A stretch of 34,754 bases of DNA from contig PWIL01000034.1 in NCBI GenBank assembly GCA_003560455.1, positions 1 to 34,754 on the forward strand, read 5' to 3'. A program made the position numbers and the translations under genes. The stretch is from Mollicutes bacterium (GTDB taxonomy: Bacteria; Bacillota_I; Bacilli_A; RF39; UBA660). Position 1 is the stretch's first letter. Each line of letters opens with the position of its first letter. Shown here piece after piece: positions 5,638 to 30,916 of the stretch. The notes beneath the pieces were generated by a model. The model saw nothing but the letters and a program-made list of their open reading frames with translations. It had not been told where the DNA came from and did not search any database.

Positions 5638-8004
5638 ATGAAAGAAATTGAAAAAAAAGTAGCACAAATGCAAGTAATTAAACGAAATGGTCGTGGGGTG
5701 CCATTTGATGGTAGTAAAATTGCGATCGCCATTAAAAAAGGGTTTGACAGTATTGTCGATTTAGAAGATGATAATTTACAGCGTAAATATACTTCTAAAG
5801 ATATTGATAAAGTTTATCGTGGAGTAATTGGTGAGATAGCAAAAAAATATCAACCAAATGATCGAGTGAAAATTGAAGATATTCAAGATATGATTGAAAA
5901 CCAATTACAAAAATTGGATTATAGTGATGTTTATAGTTCTTTCGCTGAATATCGTGAGCGAAGAAATCAATCAAGACAATTATTTTTTGATCATCGAAAA
6001 CAACATAAATTTTTAAAGGTAATTGAAGATTTAGGTTTAAAATCATCATTAGAAAGTGATGATAAAAGAGAAAATGCTAATGTTGATGGTGACACAGCAA
6101 TGGGCAAAATGTTGCAATATGGGAGTACTATTTCGAAAGAATTTGCTAAATCTTATTTACTAAAAAGAAAATTTAGTGACGCTCATGATGAAGGTGACAT
6201 TCATATTCATGATTTAGATTTTTTATCAATGGGGACGACAACTTGTACCCAAGTAGATTTAGAAAAACTATTTAAAGATGGTTTTTCAACTGGTCATGGT
6301 ACGGTTCGGGAACCAAATGATATTATGTCATATGCTGCTTTAGCAGCGATTGCTATTCAGGCAAATCAAAATGATCAACATGGGGGACAAAGTATTCCAG
6401 CTTTTGATTATTATTTAGCGCCAGGAGTGGTTAAAACTTTTCGTAAGCAATTAAAACAAACTTTATTTGACTTATTGGATTATAGCGGGTTTTTATCTTT
6501 TGTTAATTTTAAAAAAATTACTAAAAAAATAGATGAAACATCAACCATTACTCTTAATGAAGATTATTTTAGCGAATTTATCAAAGATAGTGAGCAATTA
6601 GCAAAACTTTTTCAAAAAGCTTATCAAAAAGCAATTGAAAAAACTGAACGAATTACTTATCAGGCGATGGAAAGTTTTGTTCATAATTTGAATACGATGC
6701 ATAGTCGCGCTGGCGCGCAAGTTCCTTTTTCTTCAATTAATTTTGGAACTGATACCTCAGTAGAAGGTCGTCTAGTAACCCAAAAATATTTATTAGCCGT
6801 TGAAAGTGGCTTAGGACGTGGTGAGACAGCAATTTTTCCGATTTCTATTTTTAAAGTAAAAGAAGGCGTTAATTATCATCAAAAAGACCCAAATTATGAT
6901 TTGTTTGAACTTGCTTGTTTAGTTTCGGCTAAAAGATTATTTCCCAATTTTGCCTTTGTCGATGCTAGTTTTAATCATGAATTTTATCGACCAGGTGATT
7001 ATAAAACAGAAGTTGCTTATATGGGCTGTCGAACGCGGGTTTTAGGTAATGTCATTGATGAAAAAAAAGCAGTCACACCAGGGCGAGGGAATTTATCTTT
7101 TACAACTATTAATTTGCCAAGAATTGCTATTAAACATGGTTTGGTTAATAATGAAAAAGCTGATTTAGATAAATTTTATGAAGAATTAGAAAATAAAATG
7201 GAATTAGTTAAAAATCAATTATTAGATCGCTTTGCGATTCAATGTAAAAAAAGAGTTTATAATTTTCCTTTTGTTATGGGACAGGGGAATTGGATTGATT
7301 CAGAAAAATTAGGACGTGATGATAATCTCAGAAGAACTTTAAAACATGGAAGTTTATCAATAGGTTTTATTGGTTTAGCCGAAACTTTAGTGGCTTTAAC
7401 GGAAAAACATCATGGCGAAAGTAAAGAAGCTCAAAAATTAGGTTTAGAAATAATTGGCTTTATGCGTAAAAAAGCTGATGAATTTGCTGAAAAATATAAG
7501 CTTAATTTTACTTTATTAGCTTCACCAGCTGAAGGATTATCGTCAAGATTCACTAATTTAGACCGGGCGATATATGGAAAAATAAAAGGGATTACCGATA
7601 AAAAGTATTACACTAACTCATTTCATGTCCCAGTTAGTTATAAAATCAGTATTGCTGATAAAATAAAATTAGAAGCACCATATCATCAATTTACAAACGC
7701 CGGTCATATTACATATATCGAATTAACTGGAAACCCGCATAATAATTTAAAAGGTTTTATGAAAATTATTGATCAAATGAAAAAAGCAGGTGTTGGTTAT
7801 GGGGCGATTAATCATCCGTTAGATCGTGATCCAGTTTGTGGTTTTTCAGGCGTTATTACAGATAAATGTCCTGGTTGCAATCGGTTTGAGGAAGACGTTA
7901 AATTTGAACGAATTAGAAGAATTACCGGCTATTTAGTTGGGACAGTTGATCGCTTTAATGATGGTAAAAAAGCTGAAGAAAGCGATCGGGTAAAACATGA
8001 GTAA
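5638..8004 (+). CDS. nrdD: Anaerobic (class III) ribonucleoside-triphosphate reductase
   Basis: N-terminal ATP-cone (VIKRNGRGVPFDGSKI), a C-terminal Cys cluster (CGFSG...CPGCN) and the glycyl-radical motif RRITGYLVG. ATG 5638 lies 5 nt after GAGGGAGG. Confidence 0.95.
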   Translation: MKEIEKKVAQMQVIKRNGRGVPFDGSKIAIAIKKGFDSIVDLEDDNLQRKYTSKDIDKVYRGVIGEIAKKYQPNDRVKIEDIQDMIENQLQKLDYSDVYSSFAEYRERRNQSRQLFFDHRKQHKFLKVIEDLGLKSSLESDDKRENANVDGDTAMGKMLQYGSTISKEFAKSYLLKRKFSDAHDEGDIHIHDLDFLSMGTTTCTQVDLEKLFKDGFSTGHGTVREPNDIMSYAALAAIAIQANQNDQHGGQSIPAFDYYLAPGVVKTFRKQLKQTLFDLLDYSGFLSFVNFKKITKKIDETSTITLNEDYFSEFIKDSEQLAKLFQKAYQKAIEKTERITYQAMESFVHNLNTMHSRAGAQVPFSSINFGTDTSVEGRLVTQKYLLAVESGLGRGETAIFPISIFKVKEGVNYHQKDPNYDLFELACLVSAKRLFPNFAFVDASFNHEFYRPGDYKTEVAYMGCRTRVLGNVIDEKKAVTPGRGNLSFTTINLPRIAIKHGLVNNEKADLDKFYEELENKMELVKNQLLDRFAIQCKKRVYNFPFVMGQGNWIDSEKLGRDDNLRRTLKHGSLSIGFIGLAETLVALTEKHHGESKEAQKLGLEIIGFMRKKADEFAEKYKLNFTLLASPAEGLSSRFTNLDRAIYGKIKGITDKKYYTNSFHVPVSYKISIADKIKLEAPYHQFTNAGHITYIELTGNPHNNLKGFMKIIDQMKKAGVGYGAINHPLDRDPVCGFSGVITDKCPGCNRFEEDVKFERIRRITGYLVGTVDRFNDGKKAEESDRVKHE

Positions 8005-8584: not shown

Positions 8585-8593
8585 TGATATAAT
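8585..8593 (+). promoter_or_regulatory. Extended -10 element (TGaTATAAT) ahead of the first pilin-like gene
   Basis: TG at 8585-8586 and TATAAT at 8588-8593. No clear -35. Confidence 0.4.
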
Positions 8594-8618
8594 GCAAATA
8601 ATAAAGATAGGTGATATT

Positions 8619-9503
8619 ATGAAAAAAGGTTTTACATTAGTTGAAATGTTAGCAGTCATTGTGATTTTAGCATTATTGGTTATTTTGGTTATTCCCGCGG
8701 TATCGAATATTATTAGTAATTCGCGAACAAGATTGTATGATGTGCAAATCAAAAATATTGAGTTAGCAGCAAAAAATTGGGGAGCCGAAAATGTTGGAAT
8801 GCTACCAAGTGAAGAAGGCGGTAGTATTACTATTTATTTATATAATTTAAAAATGGGTGGCTTTATTGAAGATGACATTTTAGACCCGCTTTCTGGTGAA
8901 GAATTTCCGAATGATATTCAAATTGAGATAACTCGCGAACGCAATAGTTTTAAATATTTTGTATTAACTGATACGGGAACGCCAGGCGGGATTACTGGTT
9001 ATGATGAAATAGTTATTATTTTGATTGGTGCAACTGAAGATACGGTTGAAATTAATAGTGGTTTTCCCGGCGTCGGGCCTGATGATATTGTTGCCTATGC
9101 GGCAGATGGAACAATAATTGCTAATGCCTATATTTCTATTACCATAACCGAAAATGGCAGTCCAGTTGGCAGTGTTGATGTAACTGGATTTAATGATTAT
9201 GAAATATTATATGAAGTTAACTTTGGGGGCAAATCAGCTAGCGTTGAACGGACATTAGAAGTAGTTGATACAACACCACCAGAATTAATTGTCCCACCTG
9301 AAACAACGATTTCAGCTGCTGAATGTAATGCTCCGTATGATTTAGAAACAGATATTTTAGTTAGTGATAATAGTGGCTCATATAATCTTGAAATTAATGG
9401 TAGTCTTAATTGTACCGCGCCTTCAACGAATGTGATTGAATATGTGGCTACTGACGCTAGTGATAATGAAACAATTCGTGAACGAACAATTTATGTCGAG
9501 TAA
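8619..9503 (+). CDS. Prepilin-type N-terminal cleavage/methylation domain protein with a C-terminal Ig-like (DUF5011/HYR-like) module (modular pilin/pseudopilin)
   Basis: MKKGFTLVEMLAVIVILALLVILVIP is a class-III signal: G|FTLxE with E at +5, then a hydrophobic helix. The C-terminus DTTPPELIVPPETTISAAE...VIEYVATDASDNETIRERTIYV resembles DUF5011-type Ig-like domains. ATG 8619 follows AGGTGA. Confidence 0.8.
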   Translation: MKKGFTLVEMLAVIVILALLVILVIPAVSNIISNSRTRLYDVQIKNIELAAKNWGAENVGMLPSEEGGSITIYLYNLKMGGFIEDDILDPLSGEEFPNDIQIEITRERNSFKYFVLTDTGTPGGITGYDEIVIILIGATEDTVEINSGFPGVGPDDIVAYAADGTIIANAYISITITENGSPVGSVDVTGFNDYEILYEVNFGGKSASVERTLEVVDTTPPELIVPPETTISAAECNAPYDLETDILVSDNSGSYNLEINGSLNCTAPSTNVIEYVATDASDNETIRERTIYVE

Positions 9504-11073: not shown

Positions 11074-11092
11074 ATTTTTAGGAGGATTGGTT

Positions 11093-12157
11093 ATGCGAAT
11101 AATAATTAGTGCTGGTAGTTCCGGTGGTCATATTTATCCAGCGCTTTCCTTAATAAAAATTATTAAACAACTAAACCCACAAGTTGAATTTTTGTATGTT
11201 GGTCGAAAAGATAGTTTAGAAGAAAAAGAGGTTAAGAGTTATGACATTCCTTTTTTTGCAATTAAAAGCTATGGATTTGATCGAAAAAATAAACTAAAAA
11301 ATCTTCGTTTAATTGGGTTATTTCTTAAAAATTATTTTACTTTACGAAAAAAAATTAAACAATATCAACCAGATGTTGTTTTGGGCTTTGGGGGGCATGT
11401 AACAATACCGGTTATTTTTGTTGCTTCAAAATTAAAAATTAAAACTTACATTCATGAGCAAAATAAAATTATTGGTAAAGCAAATCTTTTTTTAAGCAAA
11501 TATGTTGATGCTATTTTACTTTCATTTCCCGAAACTTTAAAAATACCTAAAAAGGTTAAAACAATTTATACCGGTAATCCGGTTATGGAAAACGCTTTAA
11601 AAATTGAAAAATTTTCCAAAACTGAATTAGGATTAACAAAAAACAAAAAATTAATTTTAATTATGTTGGGTTCACTTGGCGCCCAAAATGTTCATCAATA
11701 TTTAATGGCAAATTTAACAAAACTAACCAGAAACAATTATCAAATTGTTTATGTGACTGGACCGCGCCATTTTGATGAAAAAGCAGCGAATAACATGCCT
11801 AATGATATTATTGTGCTTTCGTATTTCAAAGATTTAGTTAGACTAATGAAAGAAGCTGATTTAATTGTTTCAAGAGCAGGTGCAACTACGTTAGCCGAAC
11901 TAATTGCTTTACGAAAACCAGCATTATTAATCCCCAGTCCCTTTGTTCCGGATAATCATCAAGAATATAACGCTAATTATTTGATCGATAAAAATGCAGC
12001 GGTGCTATTACCAGAAAAAGATTTAGAAAATTTAATTTCTAAAATTGAAAAATTAATTATGGATACTGATTTAATCAAGCAAATGCAAACAAATTTAGGT
12101 AAAATAAAAATTGACAATAGTGGTCAACTTATATATAATGTTTTAAAGCAAGGATAG
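11093..12157 (+). CDS. murG: UDP-N-acetylglucosamine--N-acetylmuramyl-(pentapeptide) pyrophosphoryl-undecaprenol GlcNAc transferase
   Basis: Motifs SAGSSGGHIYPALSL and SRAGATTLAELIALRKPALLIPSP...HQEYNA. ATG 11093 lies 7 nt after AGGAGG. Confidence 0.93.
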   Translation: MRIIISAGSSGGHIYPALSLIKIIKQLNPQVEFLYVGRKDSLEEKEVKSYDIPFFAIKSYGFDRKNKLKNLRLIGLFLKNYFTLRKKIKQYQPDVVLGFGGHVTIPVIFVASKLKIKTYIHEQNKIIGKANLFLSKYVDAILLSFPETLKIPKKVKTIYTGNPVMENALKIEKFSKTELGLTKNKKLILIMLGSLGAQNVHQYLMANLTKLTRNNYQIVYVTGPRHFDEKAANNMPNDIIVLSYFKDLVRLMKEADLIVSRAGATTLAELIALRKPALLIPSPFVPDNHQEYNANYLIDKNAAVLLPEKDLENLISKIEKLIMDTDLIKQMQTNLGKIKIDNSGQLIYNVLKQG

Positions 12158-12166
12158 GGGGAGCAG

Positions 12167-13063
12167 ATGGATTTAACAACAGAATTAGAAAAATTAAATT
12201 GTGGTTTAGTAAAAAAAGAAGAACCATTAACCAAATATACAACTTATCAATTAAAAGGAACAATTAAGAACGTTATTTTTCCGGAAAATATAGAACAATT
12301 AAAAAAACTTTTAAATTTTTTGCGCGAAAAAAAAGAACGGCACTTAGTTATCGGTAGCGGTTCTAATATTATATTTTCAGCTGATTATTATGATGGTGTT
12401 TTAATCAAACTAAATAAATTTCAAGATTTAAAAATCGAAAAAGACAAAGTATTTGTGGAAAGTGGCTATAATTTAAGTAAATTGGCTTATTTATTATCTA
12501 AAAAAGGTTTATTAGGTTTAGAGTTTGCAACCGGAATTCCTGGTACACTTGGTGGCGCTGTTTATATGAATGCTGGTGCTTATGGTTCCGCCATGAATGA
12601 GGTTATTGAAAAAGTTGTTGTTTTAACTCCAAAATTAGAAATAAAAGAACTATCGAATGCTGAACTAAAATTTGCTTATCGGCAATCATTTTTGCAAACA
12701 AACAAAGAATATATTTGTTTAGCGGTTACTCTCCAATTAAAATTTGGTGATATTGAAAATGCCCTAGCATTAATTGCAGATCGTAAACAAAGACGGCTTA
12801 ATTCCCAACCTCTTGATTTTCCAAGTGCTGGTAGTGTCTTTCGTAATCCAGAAAATGATTATGCTGGTCGTTTAATTGAAGAATTAAATTTAAAAGGCTA
12901 TCAAATTGGTGATGCCAAAGTAAGTTGCAAACATGCTAATTTTATTATTAATATTGGCAAAGCAAGTGGTCAAGATGTTCAAAAATTAATTCAGGAAATA
13001 CAAACAAGAGTATTTGAAAAATATGCTGTTAAATTAAAAGTAGAACAAGAAATAATCGAGTAG
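12167..13063 (+). CDS. murB: UDP-N-acetylenolpyruvoylglucosamine reductase
   Basis: FAD-binding region (VIGSGSNIIF), GIPGTLGGAVYMNAGAYG, the catalytic region PSAGSVFRNP, and the C-terminal KHANFIIN. Confidence 0.93.
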   Translation: MDLTTELEKLNCGLVKKEEPLTKYTTYQLKGTIKNVIFPENIEQLKKLLNFLREKKERHLVIGSGSNIIFSADYYDGVLIKLNKFQDLKIEKDKVFVESGYNLSKLAYLLSKKGLLGLEFATGIPGTLGGAVYMNAGAYGSAMNEVIEKVVVLTPKLEIKELSNAELKFAYRQSFLQTNKEYICLAVTLQLKFGDIENALALIADRKQRRLNSQPLDFPSAGSVFRNPENDYAGRLIEELNLKGYQIGDAKVSCKHANFIINIGKASGQDVQKLIQEIQTRVFEKYAVKLKVEQEIIE

Positions 13064-13071
13064 GTGATTAA

Positions 13072-13776
13072 ATGCCCAAGAAAAAAAAACGAGTCAAAAA
13101 AGCAAAAAAAACCAAAAAAATTAATCGCAAAAAGTTCTTTTTAGGATTAGTTGTTTTTTTATTTTTAGGAGTAATCGTTTTTTTAATCGGCCAAATACCA
13201 ACGAGAAATATTTTTATTTCTGGAAATTCATCTTTATCTGACCAAGAAATTATTGCTTTAGCAGAATTAGAAGATTATCCAAAACTTTTATTTTCTCGTA
13301 GTAGTGAAATTCGGCAAAAATTAATTAACGATGATTATATTTTAGAAGCCAAAGTTAAGAGACAAAGATTTATCGAGTTACATATTGAAATAAAAGAAAA
13401 CAAACCGCTTTTTTACATTGACTATGATCAAAAAACTATTTTTATTGATGGCTTAGAAATTGATAAATTTTACAATGTGCCTGTCTTATTAAATTATGTT
13501 CCGCAAGTTGTTTACGAAGGTTTTTTAGATGAATTTAATAAAATTGATGATAATATTCGGGCGAAAATATCGGAAATTCGTTATTATCCAACGGAAATTG
13601 ATGAAGAGCGGTTTTTATTTTATATGGTTGATGGTAATTATGTGTTTGTTAATTTGCAAACAATGTTAGATATAAATGATTATTTAGCCATTATGGAAAA
13701 TATTATTGCTAATTTTGGTTTGAAAAATGGAACTCTTTATTTAGATGCAGGGGGCTATTTTGAAGTAATTGATTAA
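13072..13776 (+). CDS. divIB: Cell division protein DivIB/FtsQ (POTRA-containing)
   Basis: A Lys-rich cytoplasmic N-terminus, one TM helix, then a POTRA-like region (IFISGNSSLSDQEII). Its position between murB and ftsA fits. Confidence 0.8.
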   Translation: MPKKKKRVKKAKKTKKINRKKFFLGLVVFLFLGVIVFLIGQIPTRNIFISGNSSLSDQEIIALAELEDYPKLLFSRSSEIRQKLINDDYILEAKVKRQRFIELHIEIKENKPLFYIDYDQKTIFIDGLEIDKFYNVPVLLNYVPQVVYEGFLDEFNKIDDNIRAKISEIRYYPTEIDEERFLFYMVDGNYVFVNLQTMLDINDYLAIMENIIANFGLKNGTLYLDAGGYFEVID

Positions 13777-13839
13777 AATCTGTCTTTTAATTTTTAAGAA
13801 AGTATAGTATAATAAAAAATGAATATAGGAGATGATAGC

Positions 13840-14997
13840 ATGAGGAAAATTTATACAAGCGTTGACCTTGGTTCTGATTATATCAAAGTCGTTGTTCTTG
13901 AATTACATCATAATAAATTAAATCTTTTAGCCGCTTCCTCTGTTAAATCTTCTGGTATAAAAAAAGGATTAATTACTAATGCAACTGCGGCATTATCTTC
14001 ATTACAAACAGCAATCGAAGAAGTAGAAGGAATCTTACATACTAAAATTAAAAGAGTTTTAACGTCGATTCCGGCTCATAATGCTGAATATATTTATGCT
14101 CAAGGAACAATCAAGATTGAACGGGAAGATAAAAAAATTAATAGTGAAGATATTAATGAAATTTTTCGAAAAGTAATTAAAGATCGGGTGCGGTTTGATT
14201 ATGAATTAATTACAATTCATCCCATTGATTTTACGGTTGATGATCGAACTGAATTAAAAAATCCGAAAGGATTAACTGGCGATGAATTAAGTGGCCGAGT
14301 TATTATTGTTGCTACGCCGAAAAAAAATATTTATTCAGTGGTTAGTTTAATTGAAGCCGCTAATTTAGAAGTAGTTGATGTTTCAATTAATAGTATTGGT
14401 GATAGTTATACTCTAAGAAATGAAAAAACGGCTACTGAAGTAGGGGCGATAGTTAATCTTGGTGCTGAGACAACAACAGTCGCAATTTTTAATAAAGGAA
14501 TTATTACTAATGCTTCAGTTATTCCCTTGGGTAGTCGAAAAATTGATAGTGATATTGCCTATATATTTAAATTATCTTTGCATAATGCTAATAAGTTAAA
14601 AGAAAAATTTTCAACCGCTCATCGTCGCTATGCGTCAGCAGAAAACATTCGTGAAATAGAAAATGTTGATAAAGAAGAAATAAAAATAAATCAATATGAA
14701 TTATCTGAAGTAGTCATGTTTCGAGCGGAAGAAATCTTAAATTTAGTAAAAAAAGAGCTTAAAGCTTTGACTAATAAAAAAATGCAGTATATAATATTAA
14801 CAGGTGGTGGTAGTCATTTAGCAAATATTACCGAGTTAGCAACTAATGTTTTAGAAGAAAAAGTATTGCTTGGTGATGTTAAAGTGGTTGGCGCTCGTAA
14901 TAATAGATTTTCATCAGCAGTGGGCAATATCGTATATTTTATTAATAAGTTAAATCTAAAAGGAAAACAATATTCAATGTTTAGTTCTAGTGATTAA
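13840..14997 (+). CDS. ftsA: Cell division protein FtsA (as written, lacks a C-terminal membrane-targeting helix)
   Basis: Actin-fold motifs: YTSVDLGSDYIKVVV, VNLGAETTTVAIF and ILTGGGSHLANI. ATG 13840 lies 8 nt after AGGAG. The ORF stops at TAA 14995-14997 inside the expected C-terminal linker (see findings). Confidence 0.92.
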   Translation: MRKIYTSVDLGSDYIKVVVLELHHNKLNLLAASSVKSSGIKKGLITNATAALSSLQTAIEEVEGILHTKIKRVLTSIPAHNAEYIYAQGTIKIEREDKKINSEDINEIFRKVIKDRVRFDYELITIHPIDFTVDDRTELKNPKGLTGDELSGRVIIVATPKKNIYSVVSLIEAANLEVVDVSINSIGDSYTLRNEKTATEVGAIVNLGAETTTVAIFNKGIITNASVIPLGSRKIDSDIAYIFKLSLHNANKLKEKFSTAHRRYASAENIREIENVDKEEIKINQYELSEVVMFRAEEILNLVKKELKALTNKKMQYIILTGGGSHLANITELATNVLEEKVLLGDVKVVGARNNRFSSAVGNIVYFINKLNLKGKQYSMFSSSD

Positions 14998-15081
14998 GAT
15001 AAAATTAGCGATGTTCATGGTGATGAAATATTAGGAAGTTCAACATTAGGAAAAGTATTTGGCTTTTTCACAAATGAATAA
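14998..15081 (+). other. In-frame post-stop extension of ftsA encoding a putative amphipathic membrane-targeting helix
   Basis: It reads [27 protein letters not shown], then TAA (15079-15081) embedded in the ftsZ SD. There is no start codon or SD of its own. Confidence 0.5.
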
Positions 15082-15091
15082 GGAGGATTAT

Positions 15092-16156
15092 ATGTTAGGT
15101 TTAGAAATGGATCAGTTGGCAAAAATAAAAGTATTAGGAATTGGTGGTGGTGGTAATAATGCTGTTAATCGCATGATTGAATCCGGAGTTAAAGGGGTTG
15201 AATTTATTGTTGCTAATACTGATTTGCAAGTTTTAAACAATTCAAAGGCACCAATTAAAATTCAATTAGGCGAAGAATTAACTAATGGTTTAGGTGCTGG
15301 TGCGGATCCAGAAATTGGTAAAAATGCAGCACTAGAAACAAAAGAGGAACTAAAAAAAGTTTTAGAAGGCGCGGATATGGTTTTTGTCACTTGTGGTATG
15401 GGTGGCGGAACAGGTACTGGTGCAGCACCGGTTATTGCTGAAATAGCTAATGAAATTGGCGCATTAACAGTTGGTATTGTCACTAAACCATTTTCATTTG
15501 AAGGCAAGAAGAGAATGGAACAAGCTTTAGTTGGTTTAGAAGAATTAAAAAAGCATGTTGATACATTAATTATAATTCCGAATGATCGTTTAAGAGATAT
15601 TATTGATAAATCAACACCATTATTAGAATCGTTTAAAGAAGTTGATAATGTTTTAAGACGTGGTGTTCAGTCTATATCGGATTTAATTGCCGTTGCTGGT
15701 TTAATTAACTTAGATTTCGCTGATGTTAAAGCGGTTATGGAAAAACGTGGAACTGCTTTAATTGGTATTGGGATTGGCGTTGGCGAAGGTCGAGCAATCG
15801 AGGCCTCGCGTGAAGCTGTTTCAAGTCCACTACTTGAAACAAGTATTAATGGCGCAACTGATGCAATTATTAATGTAACAGGTGGTTCTAATTTAACTTT
15901 ATTTGAAGTAGAAGAAGCCGCAGAAGAAATTCGTGCTTCAGCAAATACTGATATTAATACTATTTTTGGAGCAGTTATAAATGAAAATTTGCAAGATGAA
16001 ATTATTGTCACGGTCATTGCAACGGGATTTGATGATGGCGATGAAAATAAAGTTACTTATCATCAACATACAAGACGTGAGGGTTTAAAAGAAGATATTG
16101 AAGAAATCGAAGATGAAGAAGACATCCCCGCGTTTATTCGAAAAGGTAGAATATAA
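15092..16156 (+). CDS. ftsZ: Cell division GTPase FtsZ
   Basis: Motifs [16 protein letters not shown] and [16 protein letters not shown], plus the C-terminal peptide [14 protein letters not shown] 15092 lies 6 nt after AAGGAGG; the ORF-track TTG 15059 start was rejected. Confidence 0.97.
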
Positions 16157-16163
16157 AAAAATG

Positions 16164-16193
16164 TAAAGTTATTAATTTAACTTTATTTTTTTT
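16164..16193 (+). terminator. Rho-independent terminator after ftsZ
   Basis: TAAAGTTA (16164-16171) / TAACTTTA (16178-16185), then T8 (16186-16193). The stem is AT-rich. Confidence 0.6.
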
Positions 16194-16204
16194 AAAAAAA
16201 AATA

Positions 16205-16213
16205 TGTTATAAT
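16205..16213 (+). promoter_or_regulatory. Extended -10 promoter element (TGtTATAAT) for the GLUG-repeat prepilin gene
   Basis: TG at 16205-16206 and TATAAT at 16208-16213, about 40 nt upstream of SD AAAGGAG (16241-16247). Confidence 0.5.
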
Positions 16214-16252
16214 TAATTTGATAATAAGTTTTAAGAATAAAAAGGAGACTAT

Positions 16253-18531
16253 ATGAAAAAAAAGGCTTTACTTTAATAGAATTATTAGCAGTAATTGTAA
16301 TATTAGCAATTATTCTTTTAATTGTGATACCAATAGTTTTAAATGTTATTAATGACGCTAGAAAAGGAGCGTTTGAAGCGACAGCAATGGGACTTTTAAA
16401 AACAGCTGAAAATGAGTGTTTAGCAGAAATGTTAAAAGGAACAGGTTTAATTAAAGAAGTTGAATTTAATGATTGGCAAATAACTAGTGAAGATGAATTA
16501 GCTTTTTCAGGAAGAGGAGCTAAAGGTGGAGATATTCATGTCAATGCTCAATGTAAAATAGCAATGGCAATTCATAATGGTGATTGGTGTATTACAAAAG
16601 AATATGATAGTGATGAAATAGTGACAACACCTTATGATGGTGAATGTGGTTTGGGAGAATCATTTGTTTTTTCATGTGATAATGAAGGTTACCCTTGTCT
16701 TCAGTGGGAAGGCAATCCATCATGGGGGACTGTTATTCAAGATGCTGGTGTCCAAGAAATTGAAACACGGGTTGCTACTGGCGATGAAATTGAGATTCAT
16801 AATTGGCATGATTTGCGGGCAATTGATGCGAATGAAGAAAATTTGAACAAAGAATATATTCTTATGGCCGATTTAAATAGTGATAGTCCCGGTTATGAAG
16901 AATATGTTAGCAATCCTAGTGATGGTTGGGATCCAATTAGTGATATAACACTCGAATATATAGTTGATGTTTCATCAGCAACTGGCGGCGGTTTTGTTCT
17001 TAGTGGTTATTGTGAAAACTCAGATAACAATTTTGAAGTAGGCCCGATAGATTATGATATTAATCAAGAAGGGTTAGATAATCTTTTTGGTTGGAATCAA
17101 GAATATTGGGATGAAGTAAAATTTTCTACATATGAAGTGATAGAAGAAGGGCGTTATCGATTTGTTTTTAGTGGTCCAGGGGGAGGGATTAAACCGTTTG
17201 ATGCTGAATTAACAGTGGATGACCAAACTTTAAATGGGGAAGCTAATATAGAGCATAAACCGCCATTTACAGGTTCATTTGATGGTAATGGTTATACGAT
17301 AGATGCTTTAATTATTGATAAATCAAATTTAGACGGTATTGGATTATTTGGATTAGTAAAAGATGCTGAATTTATTAATGTAGCATTAAGTAATATTAAT
17401 ATAAATGGAAATGATCATGTTAGCGGGTTAATAGGTTATGGTAGTGGTGATGTTGATATAGTAAATTCCTATATTGAAGGAGAAGTTGTCGGAAATGAGG
17501 AAGTAGGTGGAATAATTGGGTTTTTGCGTGAAGGAAATATTAATCTTGAAAATTCATATTTTGCTGGTAATGTTTTAGGCGATAGTGAAGTAGGTGGAAT
17601 AATTGGGTTTAGTCGTGATTCAAATGTTAGCATTGAAAACTCATATTTTACCGGTGACATTGCTGCTGATGACGAATGTGTTGGCGGATTAATAGGTTAT
17701 GCTGATACTGGTAAAGTTGAAATTGAAAACTCTTATGTTGAAGGTGATATTTTAGCATCAGGTAGTTATATTGGTGGTTTAGTTGGTTATATTTATGAAG
17801 ATGAAGCAGAAAATCGCGCCCAAATAACAAATTCCTATTTTGAAGGAAATATTACAGGCGAACATTTAATAGGTGGTTTAATTGGTTTTTATTTTAATTG
17901 GCAAGAACCTCTTCAAGACGCTCAAATAATAAATTCTTACGTCAAAGGGAATCTTCAAGGAGAGTATAGTGTTGGCGGATTAATTGCTCAAAGTTTTCGA
18001 GATATTAAGATAACAAATTCCTATTTTGAAGGAGAAGTTTTAGGTGGTTTTAATGTTGGTGGTTTAGTTGGTGAAAGTTATAAAAATCTAGAAATAGAAG
18101 AGACTTATATAAAGGCTGATGTATTTGCAAATAATGATGTGGGTGGTATCATAGGTTATATTGATTCACTTGTAGACATCATAATAACAAATTCTTATGG
18201 AAAAATTAATGTTACTGGTTTATCAGGAACTGTTGGTGGTTTGACACCGATAATGTTGCATGATGTAAATTATTTACAGATAACCAACTTTTATTTAGTT
18301 AGTGATATAACTGGTGGCGATGATTCTGGAGTAATTATTGGGATCGTTTATAGCGAACCTAATATTACCATAAATTCTTCTTTTTTTAATGGTGATATCA
18401 ATGAAAATTTAGATGCAGTAGGTACTGGCGAGAGTGTCAATTTTATTAATTCTAATACAGAGGATATGTTAATAAAAAACACATATGAAGAAGAAGGTTG
18501 GGATTTTGAAGAAATCTGGCAGATAGAATAA
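16253..18531 (+). CDS. Large modular prepilin-type protein: class-III signal/pilin module plus GLUG-motif repeat domain. It requires a -1 shift (or one extra A) at the A8 tract 16256-16263
   Basis: SD + ATG 16253 + A8 gives MKKKALL-stop in frame 0. The -1 frame from 16264 reads GFTLIELLAVIVILAIILLIVIP... and continues for 756 codons to TAA 18531. Downstream motifs: W.PI, FTGSFDGNGYTIDALII, GIGLFG and about 11 copies of NSY.xG.v.g...VGGLIGy (GLUG motif). Confidence 0.6.
16258..16264 (+). other. A_AAA_AAG slippery heptamer / A8 homopolymer at codons 2-4 of the prepilin gene
   Basis: A AAA AAG sits in the ATG frame, and the initiation SD ends 10 nt upstream (16247). A -1 slip puts GGC (16264) in frame. 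Confidence 0.5.
17314..18432 (+). repeat. Array of about 11-12 degenerate 27-34-codon GLUG-motif coding repeats
   Basis: Protein-level periodicity follows the pattern NSY[FIV].G.[VIL].G...VGG[LI]IG[FY]. An exact 24-nt duplicate GAAGTAGGTGGAATAATTGGGTTT occurs at 17500-17523 and 17587-17610. ACAAATTCCTATTTTGAAGGA recurs at about 17827 and about 18011. Confidence 0.85.
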
Positions 18532-18693
18532 AAATTTAGATATTAATGTTTTATTTTTGTGCTAAACAAAACACATGAAAAATTAATGTGTCTTTTTTAA
18601 AATCACTTTTTTAACTAAACTGATACTTAAGTTCTTTTTTTGATGGACAATAGTATCAATAAATGATAAAATGTAACATAGAAAGTGAGGCGA

Positions 18694-20088
18694 ATGAACT
18701 TGAAAAAATATTGGCAGTTTATTCAAAAAAATAGTTTAGAAAGTGTTTTATTAGGAATATTATTAATTATAGTATTGTTATCTTGGTTTATTTATCCTGG
18801 TCGATTTCATGAAGGAGTTTTTGTTTTAGGTGATGAAAAAAAGATGATTGGTGTCTTTGATTTAATTAAGTTACCATATATAACGATTGCAACTTCAATT
18901 CATATTGTTTTATATGTATTGATTATCGGTGGTTTATATGGGGTTTTAAATAAAACGAAAGTTTATCAACAAGTAGTGATGTACTGGGCGGATAAATTAG
19001 GTGATAAAGTAGTTTTGATTGTAACTATTTTGTTAATATCTTTATCATCTTTAACTGGAAATCTATATTTATTATTTGTATTAGTGCCATTTTTTGTTGC
19101 TTTAATACTATACAATAAATATGACATGTTAACTGCTTTTGCGGCTACAGTTGGTGCGATTATAATAGGAAATTCAGTGGCATTATTCCATACAGTATTT
19201 TCCGCAGCTTTTAGTTATTATTATCGTGTTGATGTTTTTTCTTTTCTATTTGAAAAAATAATTGTTTTTTTGATTGTGTTAGCGGGCTATAGCTTGTGGG
19301 TTAATAAAAAGAAAAAAACTGCTAATGAACAGATTCCTTTATTTGAAAAAGTTCGCAAGAAAAAGCAGGAATTAACTACCGGTTTTTTATTATTTTCAAG
19401 TGTATTTGTTGGTTTTCTTTTTCTAGTTATGTATGATTGGGTGTATGTTTTCGGAATTTCTTTTTTTGAAGATTTATCTAAAAGAATAAAAGATTTACCT
19501 GTTTTAGGTAATTTATTAGGAGATATTCCAAACTTTGGTTTTTGGGGTATATATGAATTATTAAATATTATTATTATTTTTATAATTTTAATAGTATTTA
19601 TTTTTAATATTAAACTGAAAGATGCGTATCAAGGCTTTATTTCTGGAGTAAAATCAATGGTTAAACCAGCACTTTATATGGGCTTTGTCTTTTTCACGTA
19701 TTATTTAATTGCTCACTTACAAGGAGGCATCAATATTTATTATGCAATTGTTAATCAAATAATATTAATGACGAAAAACTTTGAATTAGTTGGTTATGGT
19801 TTAATTGGTTTTATTAGTCTTATTTTTTATAATAATCTTGCTGAATATGTTTATAATACAACCCTTTTTATAGATGTAGTTGAGGTATCAATTAAACCAG
19901 TAATTCCATTAGTTTTAAAAAGTTTTTATGCTTTAGGAATGTTTATATTGCCAACTAGTTTGTTTTTAGTGGGTGGTTTAGTTTATTTAAAAATAAATTA
20001 TTTTGATTGGTTAAAATATATTTATCGATTTGTTCTAATTTTATTTATTTTAAATATTGGTTTTTTGCTATTATTAGCTAATCTTTAA
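18694..20088 (+). CDS. YfcC-family (DcuC/ion-transporter superfamily) integral membrane permease
   Basis: It has more than 10 TM helices and aligns by eye with E. coli YfcC. For example, VLYVLIIGGLYGVLNKT aligns with MFMLVIGGAFGIVMRTG, and the C-terminal ILPTSLFLVGGLVYLKINYFDWLKY aligns with IYPTSASLMATLGVCRVDFRNWLKV. ATG 18694 follows GTGAGG. Confidence 0.65.
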   Translation: MNLKKYWQFIQKNSLESVLLGILLIIVLLSWFIYPGRFHEGVFVLGDEKKMIGVFDLIKLPYITIATSIHIVLYVLIIGGLYGVLNKTKVYQQVVMYWADKLGDKVVLIVTILLISLSSLTGNLYLLFVLVPFFVALILYNKYDMLTAFAATVGAIIIGNSVALFHTVFSAAFSYYYRVDVFSFLFEKIIVFLIVLAGYSLWVNKKKKTANEQIPLFEKVRKKKQELTTGFLLFSSVFVGFLFLVMYDWVYVFGISFFEDLSKRIKDLPVLGNLLGDIPNFGFWGIYELLNIIIIFIILIVFIFNIKLKDAYQGFISGVKSMVKPALYMGFVFFTYYLIAHLQGGINIYYAIVNQIILMTKNFELVGYGLIGFISLIFYNNLAEYVYNTTLFIDVVEVSIKPVIPLVLKSFYALGMFILPTSLFLVGGLVYLKINYFDWLKYIYRFVLILFILNIGFLLLLANL

Positions 20089-20712
20089 ATGATAGAAGAA
20101 TTTACTTATCGGGAATTAAAAATAAAAGTAATTCGCAAAAAAATAAAACATACTTATTTACGAGTTAATGAAAATAAAGAAGTAATTATTTCTACTTCTT
20201 TTCAAACCAAACAAAAGGAATGGCAAAAACTAGTCGATCAATATTATAATAAAATTCAAATAATGCGAGAAAAACAAATCGATAATGATATTTTACATCT
20301 TTTTGGTAAAAAATATCGCAAAATCAAAATGAGTGGGATTGCTAATGTTGAAATATTAGAAGACAAAATTTTTTATAGTAATGAAAAAAAATTACATAAT
20401 TGGTATTTACAAGAAACCAAAAACTACTTTGAGGAATTATTAATTTCTGAACAAAAAAAGTTTTCTAAAAAAATACCATTACCAGGATTAAAAATTCGCA
20501 AAATGAAATCGCGTTGGGGTGTTTGTCATCGTGGTAAAAAAAGAATTACCTTAAATCTTGACTTAATGCGGTTTGAACAACCAGCAATTCAATATGTTAT
20601 TATTCATGAATTAGCACATTTTATTTATCCTAATCATAGTCCTAATTTTTGGTCACTAGTTCAAGAAAACTGTCCTGACTATCAAAAATTAAGAAAATTA
20701 TTTCGGACTTAA
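20089..20712 (+). CDS. DUF45/YgjP-like (M48-related, SprT-like) zinc metallopeptidase
   Basis: The C-terminal motif YVIIHELAHFIYPNHSPNFWSLVQENCPDYQKLRKL contains HExxH and is characteristic of DUF45. The start codon abuts the upstream stop. Confidence 0.75.
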   Translation: MIEEFTYRELKIKVIRKKIKHTYLRVNENKEVIISTSFQTKQKEWQKLVDQYYNKIQIMREKQIDNDILHLFGKKYRKIKMSGIANVEILEDKIFYSNEKKLHNWYLQETKNYFEELLISEQKKFSKKIPLPGLKIRKMKSRWGVCHRGKKRITLNLDLMRFEQPAIQYVIIHELAHFIYPNHSPNFWSLVQENCPDYQKLRKLFRT

Positions 20713-29817: not shown

Positions 29818-30916
29818 ATGGAACTAAATGAAATCGAAAAAATATTAATTGATCATCAAGCAAGAGCTGATGAATTATGGAGGTTACTTTGAAGTAGCAA
29901 CCTTAAAAAAAGAAGTTGATGATTTAAACTTAAAAATGAATAGCGCAGATTTTTGGCAAGACCAAAAAGAAGCACAAAAAATTATCAATCAACGCAATCA
30001 AAAACAAACAATTATTACTGATATTGAAACATTACAAAAAGATATTAATTCTAACTTAGAATTGGTTAATTTATTAAAAGAAGAAGTAGATGAAGAAATT
30101 AAACAAAATGTTATCAATGATTTAGAAAGATTAACCAAAGAAATAGATAAATTAGAGATTAAATTGTTACTTAATCAAAAATATGATAAAAATGATGCTG
30201 TCTTTGAAATTCATTCCGGTGCCGGTGGTACTGAAGCTAATGATTGGGTTGCCATGTTATACCGGATGTATTTAAGATATTTTGAACATAATGATTATCA
30301 ATATGAGATATTAGGTGAAATCAAAGGCGATGAAGTTGGCTATAAAAGTGTCGTTATTTTAGTAAAAGGCTTATTTGCTTATGGCTATTTAAAATATGAA
30401 CATGGTGTTCATCGTTTGGTACGAATATCACCATTTGATTCAAATGCTAAAAGACATACATCTTTTGCTTCAGTTGATGTTGTTCCATATTTTAATGAAG
30501 AAATTGATTTAGAAATAAATGAAAAAGATTTAAAAATAGATGTTTATAAAAGTAGTGGTGCTGGTGGTCAATCGGTAAATACAACTGATAGTGCTGTACG
30601 AATAACTCACCTGCCATCAAAAATAGTCGTTACTTGTCAAAACGAAAGAAGTCAAATAAAAAATAAAGAACAAGCTTTAAAGATATTGAAAAATAAATTA
30701 TGGACGATTGAAGAAACCAAAAAAGAAGAATCATTAAAAGCGATTCGTGGCGATGTCATTGATATTAATTTTGGTTCACAAATCAGAAGTTATGTCATGC
30801 ATCCGTATTCAATGGTCAAAGATCATCGAACTAATACCGAAGTTACTAATGTTGAAAAAGTATTAGCTGGTGATATCAATCAATTTATCAATGATAATTT
30901 AAAAAGAAAGGACTGA
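29818..30916 (+). CDS. prfB: Peptide chain release factor 2, with programmed +1 frameshift: join(29818..29889,29891..30916)
   Basis: Frame 0 reads MELNEIEKILIDHQARADELWRLL, then TGA (29890-29892). The +1 frame continues EVATLKKEV...FWQD..., with SPF (RISPFDS) and GGQ (SGAGGQSVN) motifs. Confidence 0.95.
29879..29892 (+). other. RF2 autoregulatory +1 frameshift site
   Basis: GGAGG (29879-29883), a 3-nt spacer (TTA), then CTT TGA (29887-29892). This is the canonical internal SD + CUU UGA arrangement. Confidence 0.9.

Follow-up and report, generated by a model that had tools for sequence, protein, structure and literature searches.

It was found that the gene for a modular type IV pilin in a contig of a Mollicutes bacterium (PWIL01000034.1) is out of frame with its own start codon by a single base. 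The DNA analysed here, called the window, is a complete 34,754-bp contig of an NCBI metagenome-assembled genome (MAG). A Shine-Dalgarno (SD) sequence, AAAGGAG (16241..16247, + strand), lies 5 nt (ACTAT) before an ATG at 16253. The ATG is followed by exactly eight A residues (16256..16263, + strand) and then by GG. This A8 tract makes up the Lys codons of the leader and is the site of the one-base deficit. The open reading frame (ORF) specified by the SD and the ATG (16253..16276, + strand) reads ATG AAA AAA AAG GCT TTA CTT TAA, encoding only MKKKALL, and a TAG lies directly behind the stop codon at 16274-76. The body of the pilin gene lies in the -1 frame relative to ATG 16253. From GGC 16264, this frame reads GFTLIELLAVIVILAIILLIVIP... 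and is open until the stop codon at 18529-31 (body ORF of 755 codons plus stop, 16264..18531, + strand). The most probable explanation is a genuine loss of one base by replication slippage (A9 to A8, or GGG to GG), so that the allele is either an OFF allele of the pilin gene or a young pseudogene.

The SD, the ATG, the A8 tract and the stop of MKKKALL were read directly and lie where an initial annotation of the window had placed them. That annotation had also stated that the gene needs one more A or a -1 shift. The repair by A9 stands, but it is not the sole one-base repair. Either A9 or GGG would restore MKKKGFTLIE, as AAG GGC works too and the added G is found in a homologous leader (L079:4904).

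Is there another start codon for the body? In the body frame, no ATG, GTG or TTG exists from the stop codon TAA at 16225-27 up to a GTG at 16324 (16324..16326, + strand). The codons 5′ of GGC 16264 are GTT TTA AGA ATA AAA AGG AGA CTA TAT GAA AAA AAA. Thus, the claim that the frame has no usable start before GTG 16324 is borne out by the codon reading, and this GTG has no SD, as had also been stated. Non-canonical starts after the SD were considered and rejected, as CTA, TAT and GAA are implausible as start codons. Termination-reinitiation from the 7-codon ORF at ATA 16276 or GTG 16324 was also rejected, since the cleavage site is lost either way. The GTG itself is used in the public gene call (P0001, 735 aa, MIPIVLNV...), and the gene call of a second contig, L080, likewise starts at GTG. 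If it were the true start codon, the product would be a 735-aa protein without a pilin signal, a reading to which almost no weight can be given. It is the first canonical start codon of the body frame and the one publicly annotated, but no SD precedes it and it lies inside the conserved α1 helix (…LLIV|IPIVLNV…). A start there would remove the cleavage motif and half of the α1 helix, including the G|F site and Glu5, which are invariant in homologues. Moreover, the strong SD and the ATG 71 nt upstream would serve just a 7-codon ORF. The public gene call is an annotation artefact, and the locus is better annotated as a frameshifted modular type IV pilin gene. An exact-protein look-up of P0001 returned no record.

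The frameshift is genuine, and an assembly error is unlikely. The FtsZ sequence of the window was found residue for residue on an 11.6-kb Joint Genome Institute (JGI) contig from soda-lake sediment, SL_9KL_010_SEDDRAFT_10003151 (L080). This contig, from another assembly of the species, is 99.7% identical to window positions 11092-17992 over 6.9 kb, and about 90% identical beyond 18042. It reads ...AAAGGAGACTATATG-A8-GGCTTTACTTTAATAGAA, with the A8 tract at L080 5164-5171, and has the identical out-of-frame ATG-A8-GGC arrangement. Since single-nucleotide polymorphisms (SNPs) are present about 100 nt 3′ of the tract (16356 C>T and 16359 T>C) and elsewhere, L080 represents another haplotype; it does not simply repeat the consensus of the window. 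The long homopolymers (A/T runs of at least 7 and G/C runs of at least 5) are all equal in length between the window and L080 (26/26, in 6.5 kb aligned without gaps). A/T runs of 8 or more number 35 in the window, and 23 of them lie inside uninterrupted ORFs, including A9 at 13081-89 and A8 at 13104-11. The run at 16256-63 is the sole one that parts a start from its body. A homopolymer miscall is therefore unlikely, given the 26 concordant runs and the 23 coding runs in frame. The internal controls offered in the initial annotation, namely that other long A-runs are in frame, hold in the same 23 runs.

If the genome truly had A9 or GGG, the gene would be ordinary and the frameshift would be an artefact of sequencing or assembly, which was the first option of the initial annotation. 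Consensus indels are commonest at homopolymers, the window belongs to a MAG, its ftsA gene has an odd premature stop codon that is not in L080, and the two assemblies possibly have reads in common. However, L080 comes from a different assembler and a different haplotype and still has the same A8-GG. In addition, the 26 other long homopolymers are concordant, the frame is kept at 23/23 other coding A/T runs of 8 or more, and Illumina chemistry was used for related MAGs (PMC6146748). The artefact is thus disfavoured and seems very unlikely. A comparison of A8 with A9 in independent isolates or metagenome bins had been proposed; between the window and L080, which also has A8-GG, no length difference was found. 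An exact look-up of DivIB found only the same JGI contig, so that there is no third assembly. A scan of the metagenome_contigs collection with a 23-mer 105 nt 3′ of the tract, and then with a protein-specific middle region, gave no match; this is a weak negative, as the collection evidently lacks L080.

The premature stop codon of ftsA is a TAA at window positions 14995-14997; this codon is CAA in L080, and Gln is likewise found in the relative L081. Shortened by 28 residues, the window allele lacks the conserved C-terminal end, which is the presumed membrane-targeting helix. Either the variant is real and disables an essential gene, or the consensus of the MAG is in error here.

With the product of the body ORF, the modular type IV pilins gain a new member. 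This protein consists of a class III signal (G|FTLIE) with a hydrophobic α1 helix, followed by about 130 aa of pilin domain, a linker, and a GLUG-repeat module. The signal reads G|FTLIELLAVIVILAIILLIVIP and conforms to the class III motif (Gly at -1, Phe/Met at +1, Glu at +5, and about 20 hydrophobic residues). TIGR02532 of NCBIfam (IV_pilin_GFxxxE) matches with 20.7 bits against a cutoff of 16.3, and the score of Pfam N_methyl is 17.7, under its cutoff of 21.2, for a query without the leader. Pfam Glug matches the protein at 8e-25. The GLUG repeat region (17344..18364, + strand), delimited by Pfam Glug and the repeat list, has about 8-9 units with the motif xNSYfxG...VGGLiG. Thus, the identification as a prepilin-type GLUG protein with a class III signal, already made in the initial annotation, is supported by Pfam Glug and TIGR02532. 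In an AlphaFold2 (AF2) model of residues 1-150 with a predicted local distance difference test score (pLDDT) of 88.6, a 54-residue helix (4-57) is followed by a five-stranded sheet, the topology to be expected of a pilin. A PDB profile search matched only the α1 helices of MshA, PilE1 and PilA5, and a Foldseek search of the modelled pilin domain against PDB gave no match with E < 0.7. A short, positively charged leader in frame with the start is not present; MKKK is encoded, but one base off the G|FTLIE body. No prepilin peptidase and no assembly ATPase or platform protein was found within the 34.7-kb window.

A similar architecture is known in PilB and PilC of Streptococcus sanguinis, modular type IV pilins that have a class III signal, a small pilin domain and a bulky module whose presumed place of display is the tip of the filament (Raynaud et al. 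2021, PMC8179133). The counterparts in the window protein are G|FTLIE, the modelled pilin-like domain, and the C-terminal GLUG-repeat module, and its homologues swap their C-terminal modules. The window protein differs from PilB and PilC in that its module is a GLUG repeat; the word GLUG is absent from the main text of that paper (PMC8179133). Unlike in the S. sanguinis system, no pilus machinery is visible in the window, and the start and the body of the gene are in different frames.

Many proteins match the first ~130 residues at 45-60% identity, and their C-terminal modules differ: GLUG, InlB B-repeat, Flg_new_2 and Ig-like modules were found. Their N-termini are MKKGFTLIELL, MKKKGFTLIELL and similar sequences. 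The relatives carrying the family come from MAGs of Mollicutes, Tenericutes and Bacilli, several of them from Siberian soda-lake sediments. Soda-lake sediment MAGs of this kind, sequenced by Illumina 2x150, have been assigned to an NB1-n/Izimaplasma-like group (PMC6146748). Thus, free-living NB1-n/Izimaplasma-like relatives of Mollicutes in soda-lake sediments have pilin families with exchangeable adhesin-like modules, and one recently acquired copy has probably been switched off here at the homopolymer of its leader Lys codons.

The leaders of the homologous genes were compared with that of the window. From 79 loci of representative genomes, 99 GFTLIELL-type gene starts were taken, and 97 non-redundant leaders were scored, L073:2104 being excluded. 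The start codon is in frame in 98 of the 99 gene starts and in all of the scored leaders (97/97). Typical leaders are MKKG or MKKKG, with a modal longest A-run of 5-6. The run is 7 in eleven leaders, 8 in five and 9 in one, and all of these are in frame. In L079:4904, ATG AAA AAA AAG GGA TTT lies behind GGAG; this is the string of the window plus one G, in frame. The Gly|Phe cleavage site and Glu5 are invariant in all homologues. Because the homologous leaders show the same features in frame, the A-tract, the heptamer formed by it and the SD distance are simply the look of a Lys-rich pilin leader in a genome of 30% GC.

The single gene start of the 99 that has no in-frame start codon is that of L073 (2060-2115; ...ATGAAAGAAGGAAAAAAATAATTAAAAAAAGGATTTACG). 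A TAA lies three codons before the Gly, between two A7 runs. The contig has about 4x coverage, and there is no clear single-base repair. It may be a second lesion in the leader region in this family.

The pilin-GLUG gene lies on an insert of about 2.5 kb (window ~16160-18634) between ftsZ and a DcuC-family gene. In L081, L087 and L084, whose FtsZ sequences are 91%, 90% and 85% identical to that of the window, the insert is absent and ftsZ is followed directly by the DcuC-family gene. An orthologue search among 5.8 billion proteins found none, the best full-length match having 29% identity. Since there is no orthologue and the cassette is absent from three relatives, the gene is, from these sequence comparisons, a recently acquired, species-specific accessory gene. 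Recently acquired accessory genes are the class most often lost or switched. The initial annotation had suggested checking in orthologues whether the A-tract and the out-of-frame ATG are conserved; no orthologue was found, and the relatives with 85-91% FtsZ identity are without the gene.

The left bound of the insert is a terminator-like hairpin of ftsZ. This AT-rich hairpin (AAAGTTA / TAACTTT), followed by T8 (16165..16193, + strand, read directly), probably terminates ftsZ and marks the left edge of the cassette. It was not called in a consensus terminator scan and has a single G-C pair only. The right edge lies just before TTTTTTTGATGGACAATAG (18635-18655), which is common to the window and L081 (6066-6110 region) and is part of the dcuC promoter region; a consensus promoter scan placed a promoter-like site for dcuC at 18644-18672. 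The insert has its own extended -10 element and its own terminator-like hairpin. The former is TGTTATAAT (16205..16213, + strand, read directly), which is taken as the own promoter of the pilin-GLUG gene and was seen as the initial annotation had described it. No -35 match was found for TGTTATAAT, and the consensus promoter scan, which demands a -35 hexamer, omitted it. Comparable TGnTATAAT strings precede several homologous pilin genes (L050, L059, L072, L075 and L079). The latter is a hairpin (ACACAT / ATGTGT) followed by a T-run (18571..18598, + strand), probably the terminator of the cassette.

An abrupt fall in identity, from 99.7% to about 90%, was found inside the DcuC-family transporter gene between window positions 18700-20188 and L080 7577-9065. 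It points either to a breakpoint of recombination or to a chimeric contig.

The two haplotypes differ in the pilin body by 7 clean SNPs. Five are synonymous third-position changes and two are non-synonymous (I>T and Y>H); the binomial p is ~0.045 against the 1/3 expectation for third positions (n=7 SNPs). Because the SNPs are mostly synonymous, the body frame seems to have been under purifying selection recently. As far as codon positions can tell, this is weak evidence that the body frame may have been translated during most of the divergence of the haplotypes. The pilin body is richer in SNPs (6 in 1.37 kb) than murG-ftsZ (4 in 5.07 kb). An old pseudogene was considered and rejected in view of the 755-codon open frame at 31% GC and the mostly synonymous SNPs. 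In L080, the ENSYF motif of one GLUG repeat (window 17635-51) is broken by a 1-nt deletion that lies among clustered mismatches. This second frameshift may be real and would then fit decay. L080 also has Ns and a 22-nt poly-A filler in place of 49 nt of the window. These features (L080 6082, 6114, 6543-6559 and 6900-6918) are either defects of assembly or true decay of the gene, and with the Ns nearby the lesions have the look of poor assembly.

These results are best explained as follows. The MKKK leader is Lys-rich and is encoded by a homopolymer prone to replication slippage. One base has probably been lost at the junction of the A-run and the G-run, and the SD and the ATG would then yield only MKKKALL and no pilin under standard decoding. 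The loss would be a heritable mutation, carried by two haplotypes or more, and no evolved signal for recoding. Inactivation would be young or intermittently reversed, as the body is still a perfect 755-codon ORF. The tract could regain a base by slipped-strand mispairing and would then be, in practice, a reversible ON/OFF site. A reversible off-state seems marginally more probable than a dead-end young pseudogene. Some full-length protein may leak through stuttering of RNA polymerase on A8 or -1 slippage of ribosomes on A_AAA_AAG, in either case unprogrammed. I infer the direction of the mutation, its reversibility and its leakiness. Frameshifts of this kind, in which an accessory gene for a surface protein has a homopolymer indel in its 5′ coding region, are very familiar, and the mechanism is probably ordinary.

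Several points weigh against this explanation. The two assemblies may share reads and could come from one sample with two strains. Both haplotypes have A8, so that no tract-length polymorphism, the hallmark of phase variation, is seen. The SNP sample is tiny (n=7), and obligatory recoding, too, would predict both that two haplotypes share a frameshift and that their SNPs are biased in codon position. The lesions in the L080 body sit in a visibly poor assembly and are no proof of decay.

The initial annotation had put a dnaX-type -1 frameshift site in its headline. The heptamer A_AAA_AAG (16258..16264, + strand) is indeed present in the ATG frame as a potential site of unprogrammed -1 slippage, and the SD-like AAAGGAG, which ends at 16247, lies 10 nt 5′ of it. 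Both features stand, but they are not independent coincidences; they follow automatically from an ATG and Lys codons behind a normal SD. The 10-nt spacing results from the order of SD, 5 nt, ATG and 2 nt, and the SD is the gene's own initiation SD. No dnaX-type stem-loop was found 3′ of the heptamer; the minimum free energy (MFE) of 16220-16340 is -16.3 kcal/mol, with a z-score of -0.66 against shuffles. The only local hairpin 3′ of the heptamer is AU-rich and starts 25 nt downstream. A search of Rfam gave no match, and a permissive threshold gave chance-level hits only. The out-of-frame arrangement is not conserved, as it was found in none of the scored leaders (0/97) and is shared only by the 99.7%-identical L080. 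With ATG-A8-G in frame in L079 as well, a programmed device of the dnaX type is not sustained.

Nevertheless, functional recoding would make A8 a maintained working state. A -1 shift by a set fraction of ribosomes on A_AAA_AAG at codons 3-4, aided by the SD, or the addition of an A by RNA polymerase, would supply the pilin at a low dose, filament tips being the sole place where it is needed. This is unlikely, although part of the evidence suits it. The heptamer and the 10-nt spacing of the SD are truly present. In E. coli, A_AAA_AAG is the most shift-prone heptamer, and it is so where a single tRNA-Lys reads both AAA and AAG (PMC5009743). C_AAA_AAA near the start codon gives 25-60% -1 shifting in E. 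coli and rescues one-base deletions (PMC1851650), and A8 gives about 10% of transcripts with an added A in human apoB (PMC1088944). The frameshift is common to two haplotypes, and the body ORF is intact with mostly synonymous SNPs. On the other hand, the 3′ stem-loop is lacking (z -0.66, with the AU-rich hairpin 25 nt away), Rfam has no match, and no orthologue exists to show conservation. With 0/97 leaders so arranged and ATG-A8-G in frame in L079, the motif says no more than that the leader is Lys-rich. In bacteria, selection against transcriptional slippage generally starts at runs of 9 nt, not 8 (PMC1088944). A tRNA scan of the window found no tRNA gene, hence it gives no tRNA-Lys repertoire. 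It is a little less likely still that the A8 allele is the working state in the specific sense that a minority of ribosomes slip -1 at codons 3-4 with the SD-antiSD helix engaged 10 nt upstream, or that a minority of transcripts gain an A, for a deliberately low dose of pilin. If true, the recoding signal would be built wholly from the translation-initiation region, with the initiation SD itself as the stimulator, for a bulky pilin needed once per filament tip. If the A8 allele were shown to yield protein, this would be one of the rare examples in which recoding takes place right where a gene begins.

Known systems help to place the site. Like the E. coli dnaX cassette, it has an A_AAA_AAG heptamer and an SD-type sequence ending 10 nt upstream. 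It differs from dnaX in having no 3′ stem-loop and no conservation, and its "SD" is simply the one with which the gene initiates translation. Shifting would take place at codons 3-4, not deep in the ORF, and the zero-frame product is a 7-aa peptide and not a second functional protein. Of four features of the dnaX cassette, the site thus has two; the 3′ stimulator and conservation are lacking, so that it should not be filed there. Rescue of frameshifted genes at poly(A) is known in endosymbionts. As at the 9A/9T sites of transcriptional slippage (Baranov et al. 2005, PMC1088944), there is a one-base deficit in an A-run, and one untemplated A restores the ORF; the run of 8 is, however, under the 9-nt length where slippage is evident in most genomes. 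The vector pDEST17, with C_AAA_AAA near the start codon (PMC1851650), resembles the site in having a run of Lys codons a few codons in, and its unprogrammed -1 shift rescues one-base deletions; this result was obtained in E. coli under over-expression.

A true recoding site with conserved signals is present elsewhere in the window, for comparison. The prfB gene for release factor 2 (29819-30916) has the canonical +1 programmed frameshift, GGAGG TTA CTT TGA A, at ~29880-29893. Its ORF0 is MELNEIEKILIDHQARADELWRLL, ending with tgGAGGttaCTT TGA a, and the body goes on in the +1 frame (YFEVATLKKEVD...). Because of this +1 frameshift arrangement, TGA is a stop codon here (genetic code 11).

Phase variation in the strict sense was also considered. 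As an evolved contingency locus, the tract would be selected for high-frequency ON/OFF switching of a surface adhesin, like the poly-G of Neisseria pilC; this overlaps with the reversible branch of the slippage explanation preferred above. The layout is that of classic translational phase variation, a 5′ coding homopolymer in a pilus-associated surface gene (PMC5320596); here, the mononucleotide tract is A8 and lies in codons 2-4 of a pilin-adhesin gene. This accessory gene has a promoter of its own, and its ORF is kept intact. However, no variation in tract length was found between the two haplotypes, both being A8-GG, which is a weak test with two haplotypes only. The tract is not above background, as A8 is ordinary in a stretch of 34.7 kb with 35 A/T runs of at least 8, and 6/97 homologous leaders have a run of at least 8. 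The homologous leaders have neither an enrichment of long tracts nor OFF alleles, L073 set aside, and the known pilC tracts are G9-G15. An evolved contingency locus is unlikely.

The poly-G of Neisseria pilC1/pilC2 (Jonsson 1991, as cited in PMC5320596) is alike in that a run in the first codons sets the frame of the body and an OFF length leads to a short peptide. The pilC tracts, G9-G15, demonstrably differ in length from strain to strain and also within a strain (PMC5320596), whereas the tract here is A8, a usual length for this genome, and the same in both haplotypes. The pilC genes are the closest analogy in layout, but their defining tract-length variability is lacking here. Phase variation and recoding or transcriptional slippage, the other two options of the initial annotation, are not separable from a plain young pseudogene on these data. 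In summary of that interpretation, the anatomy, the gene identity and the list of options stand, the programmed dnaX-type framing is not supported, and a pseudogene had been raised only as a refutation.

Paralogous pilin genes of the family, several per genome in many members of the group, were found, some in tandem arrays with near-identical leaders and promoters. Multi-copy pilin loci are L031 3001-4300, L026, L078, SVAS01000001 (L027, L028 and L041), and CABSFU (L023, L035, L036, L038 and L052). They point to an expanded family with exchangeable modules.

Records titled "uncultured Muribaculaceae bacterium" (L001, L004, L011, L014, L016 etc.; CAYGGG, CAYYCR and CAZGXD) carry these low-GC pilin genes of the Mollicutes/Bacilli type. 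CAYGGG010000045 (L086), also with a Muribaculaceae title, has an FtsZ 85% identical to that of the window. The Muribaculaceae labels on those MAG records look wrong.

The window has a second prepilin-type gene at 8592-9503, with a probable start codon ATG at ~8619. Its product begins with MKKGFTLVEML (leader MKKGFTLVEMLAVIVILALL) and has a C-terminal bacterial Ig-like surface domain. This gene is in frame (ATG AAA AAA GGx), and its synteny upstream of murG is kept in L081 and L084.

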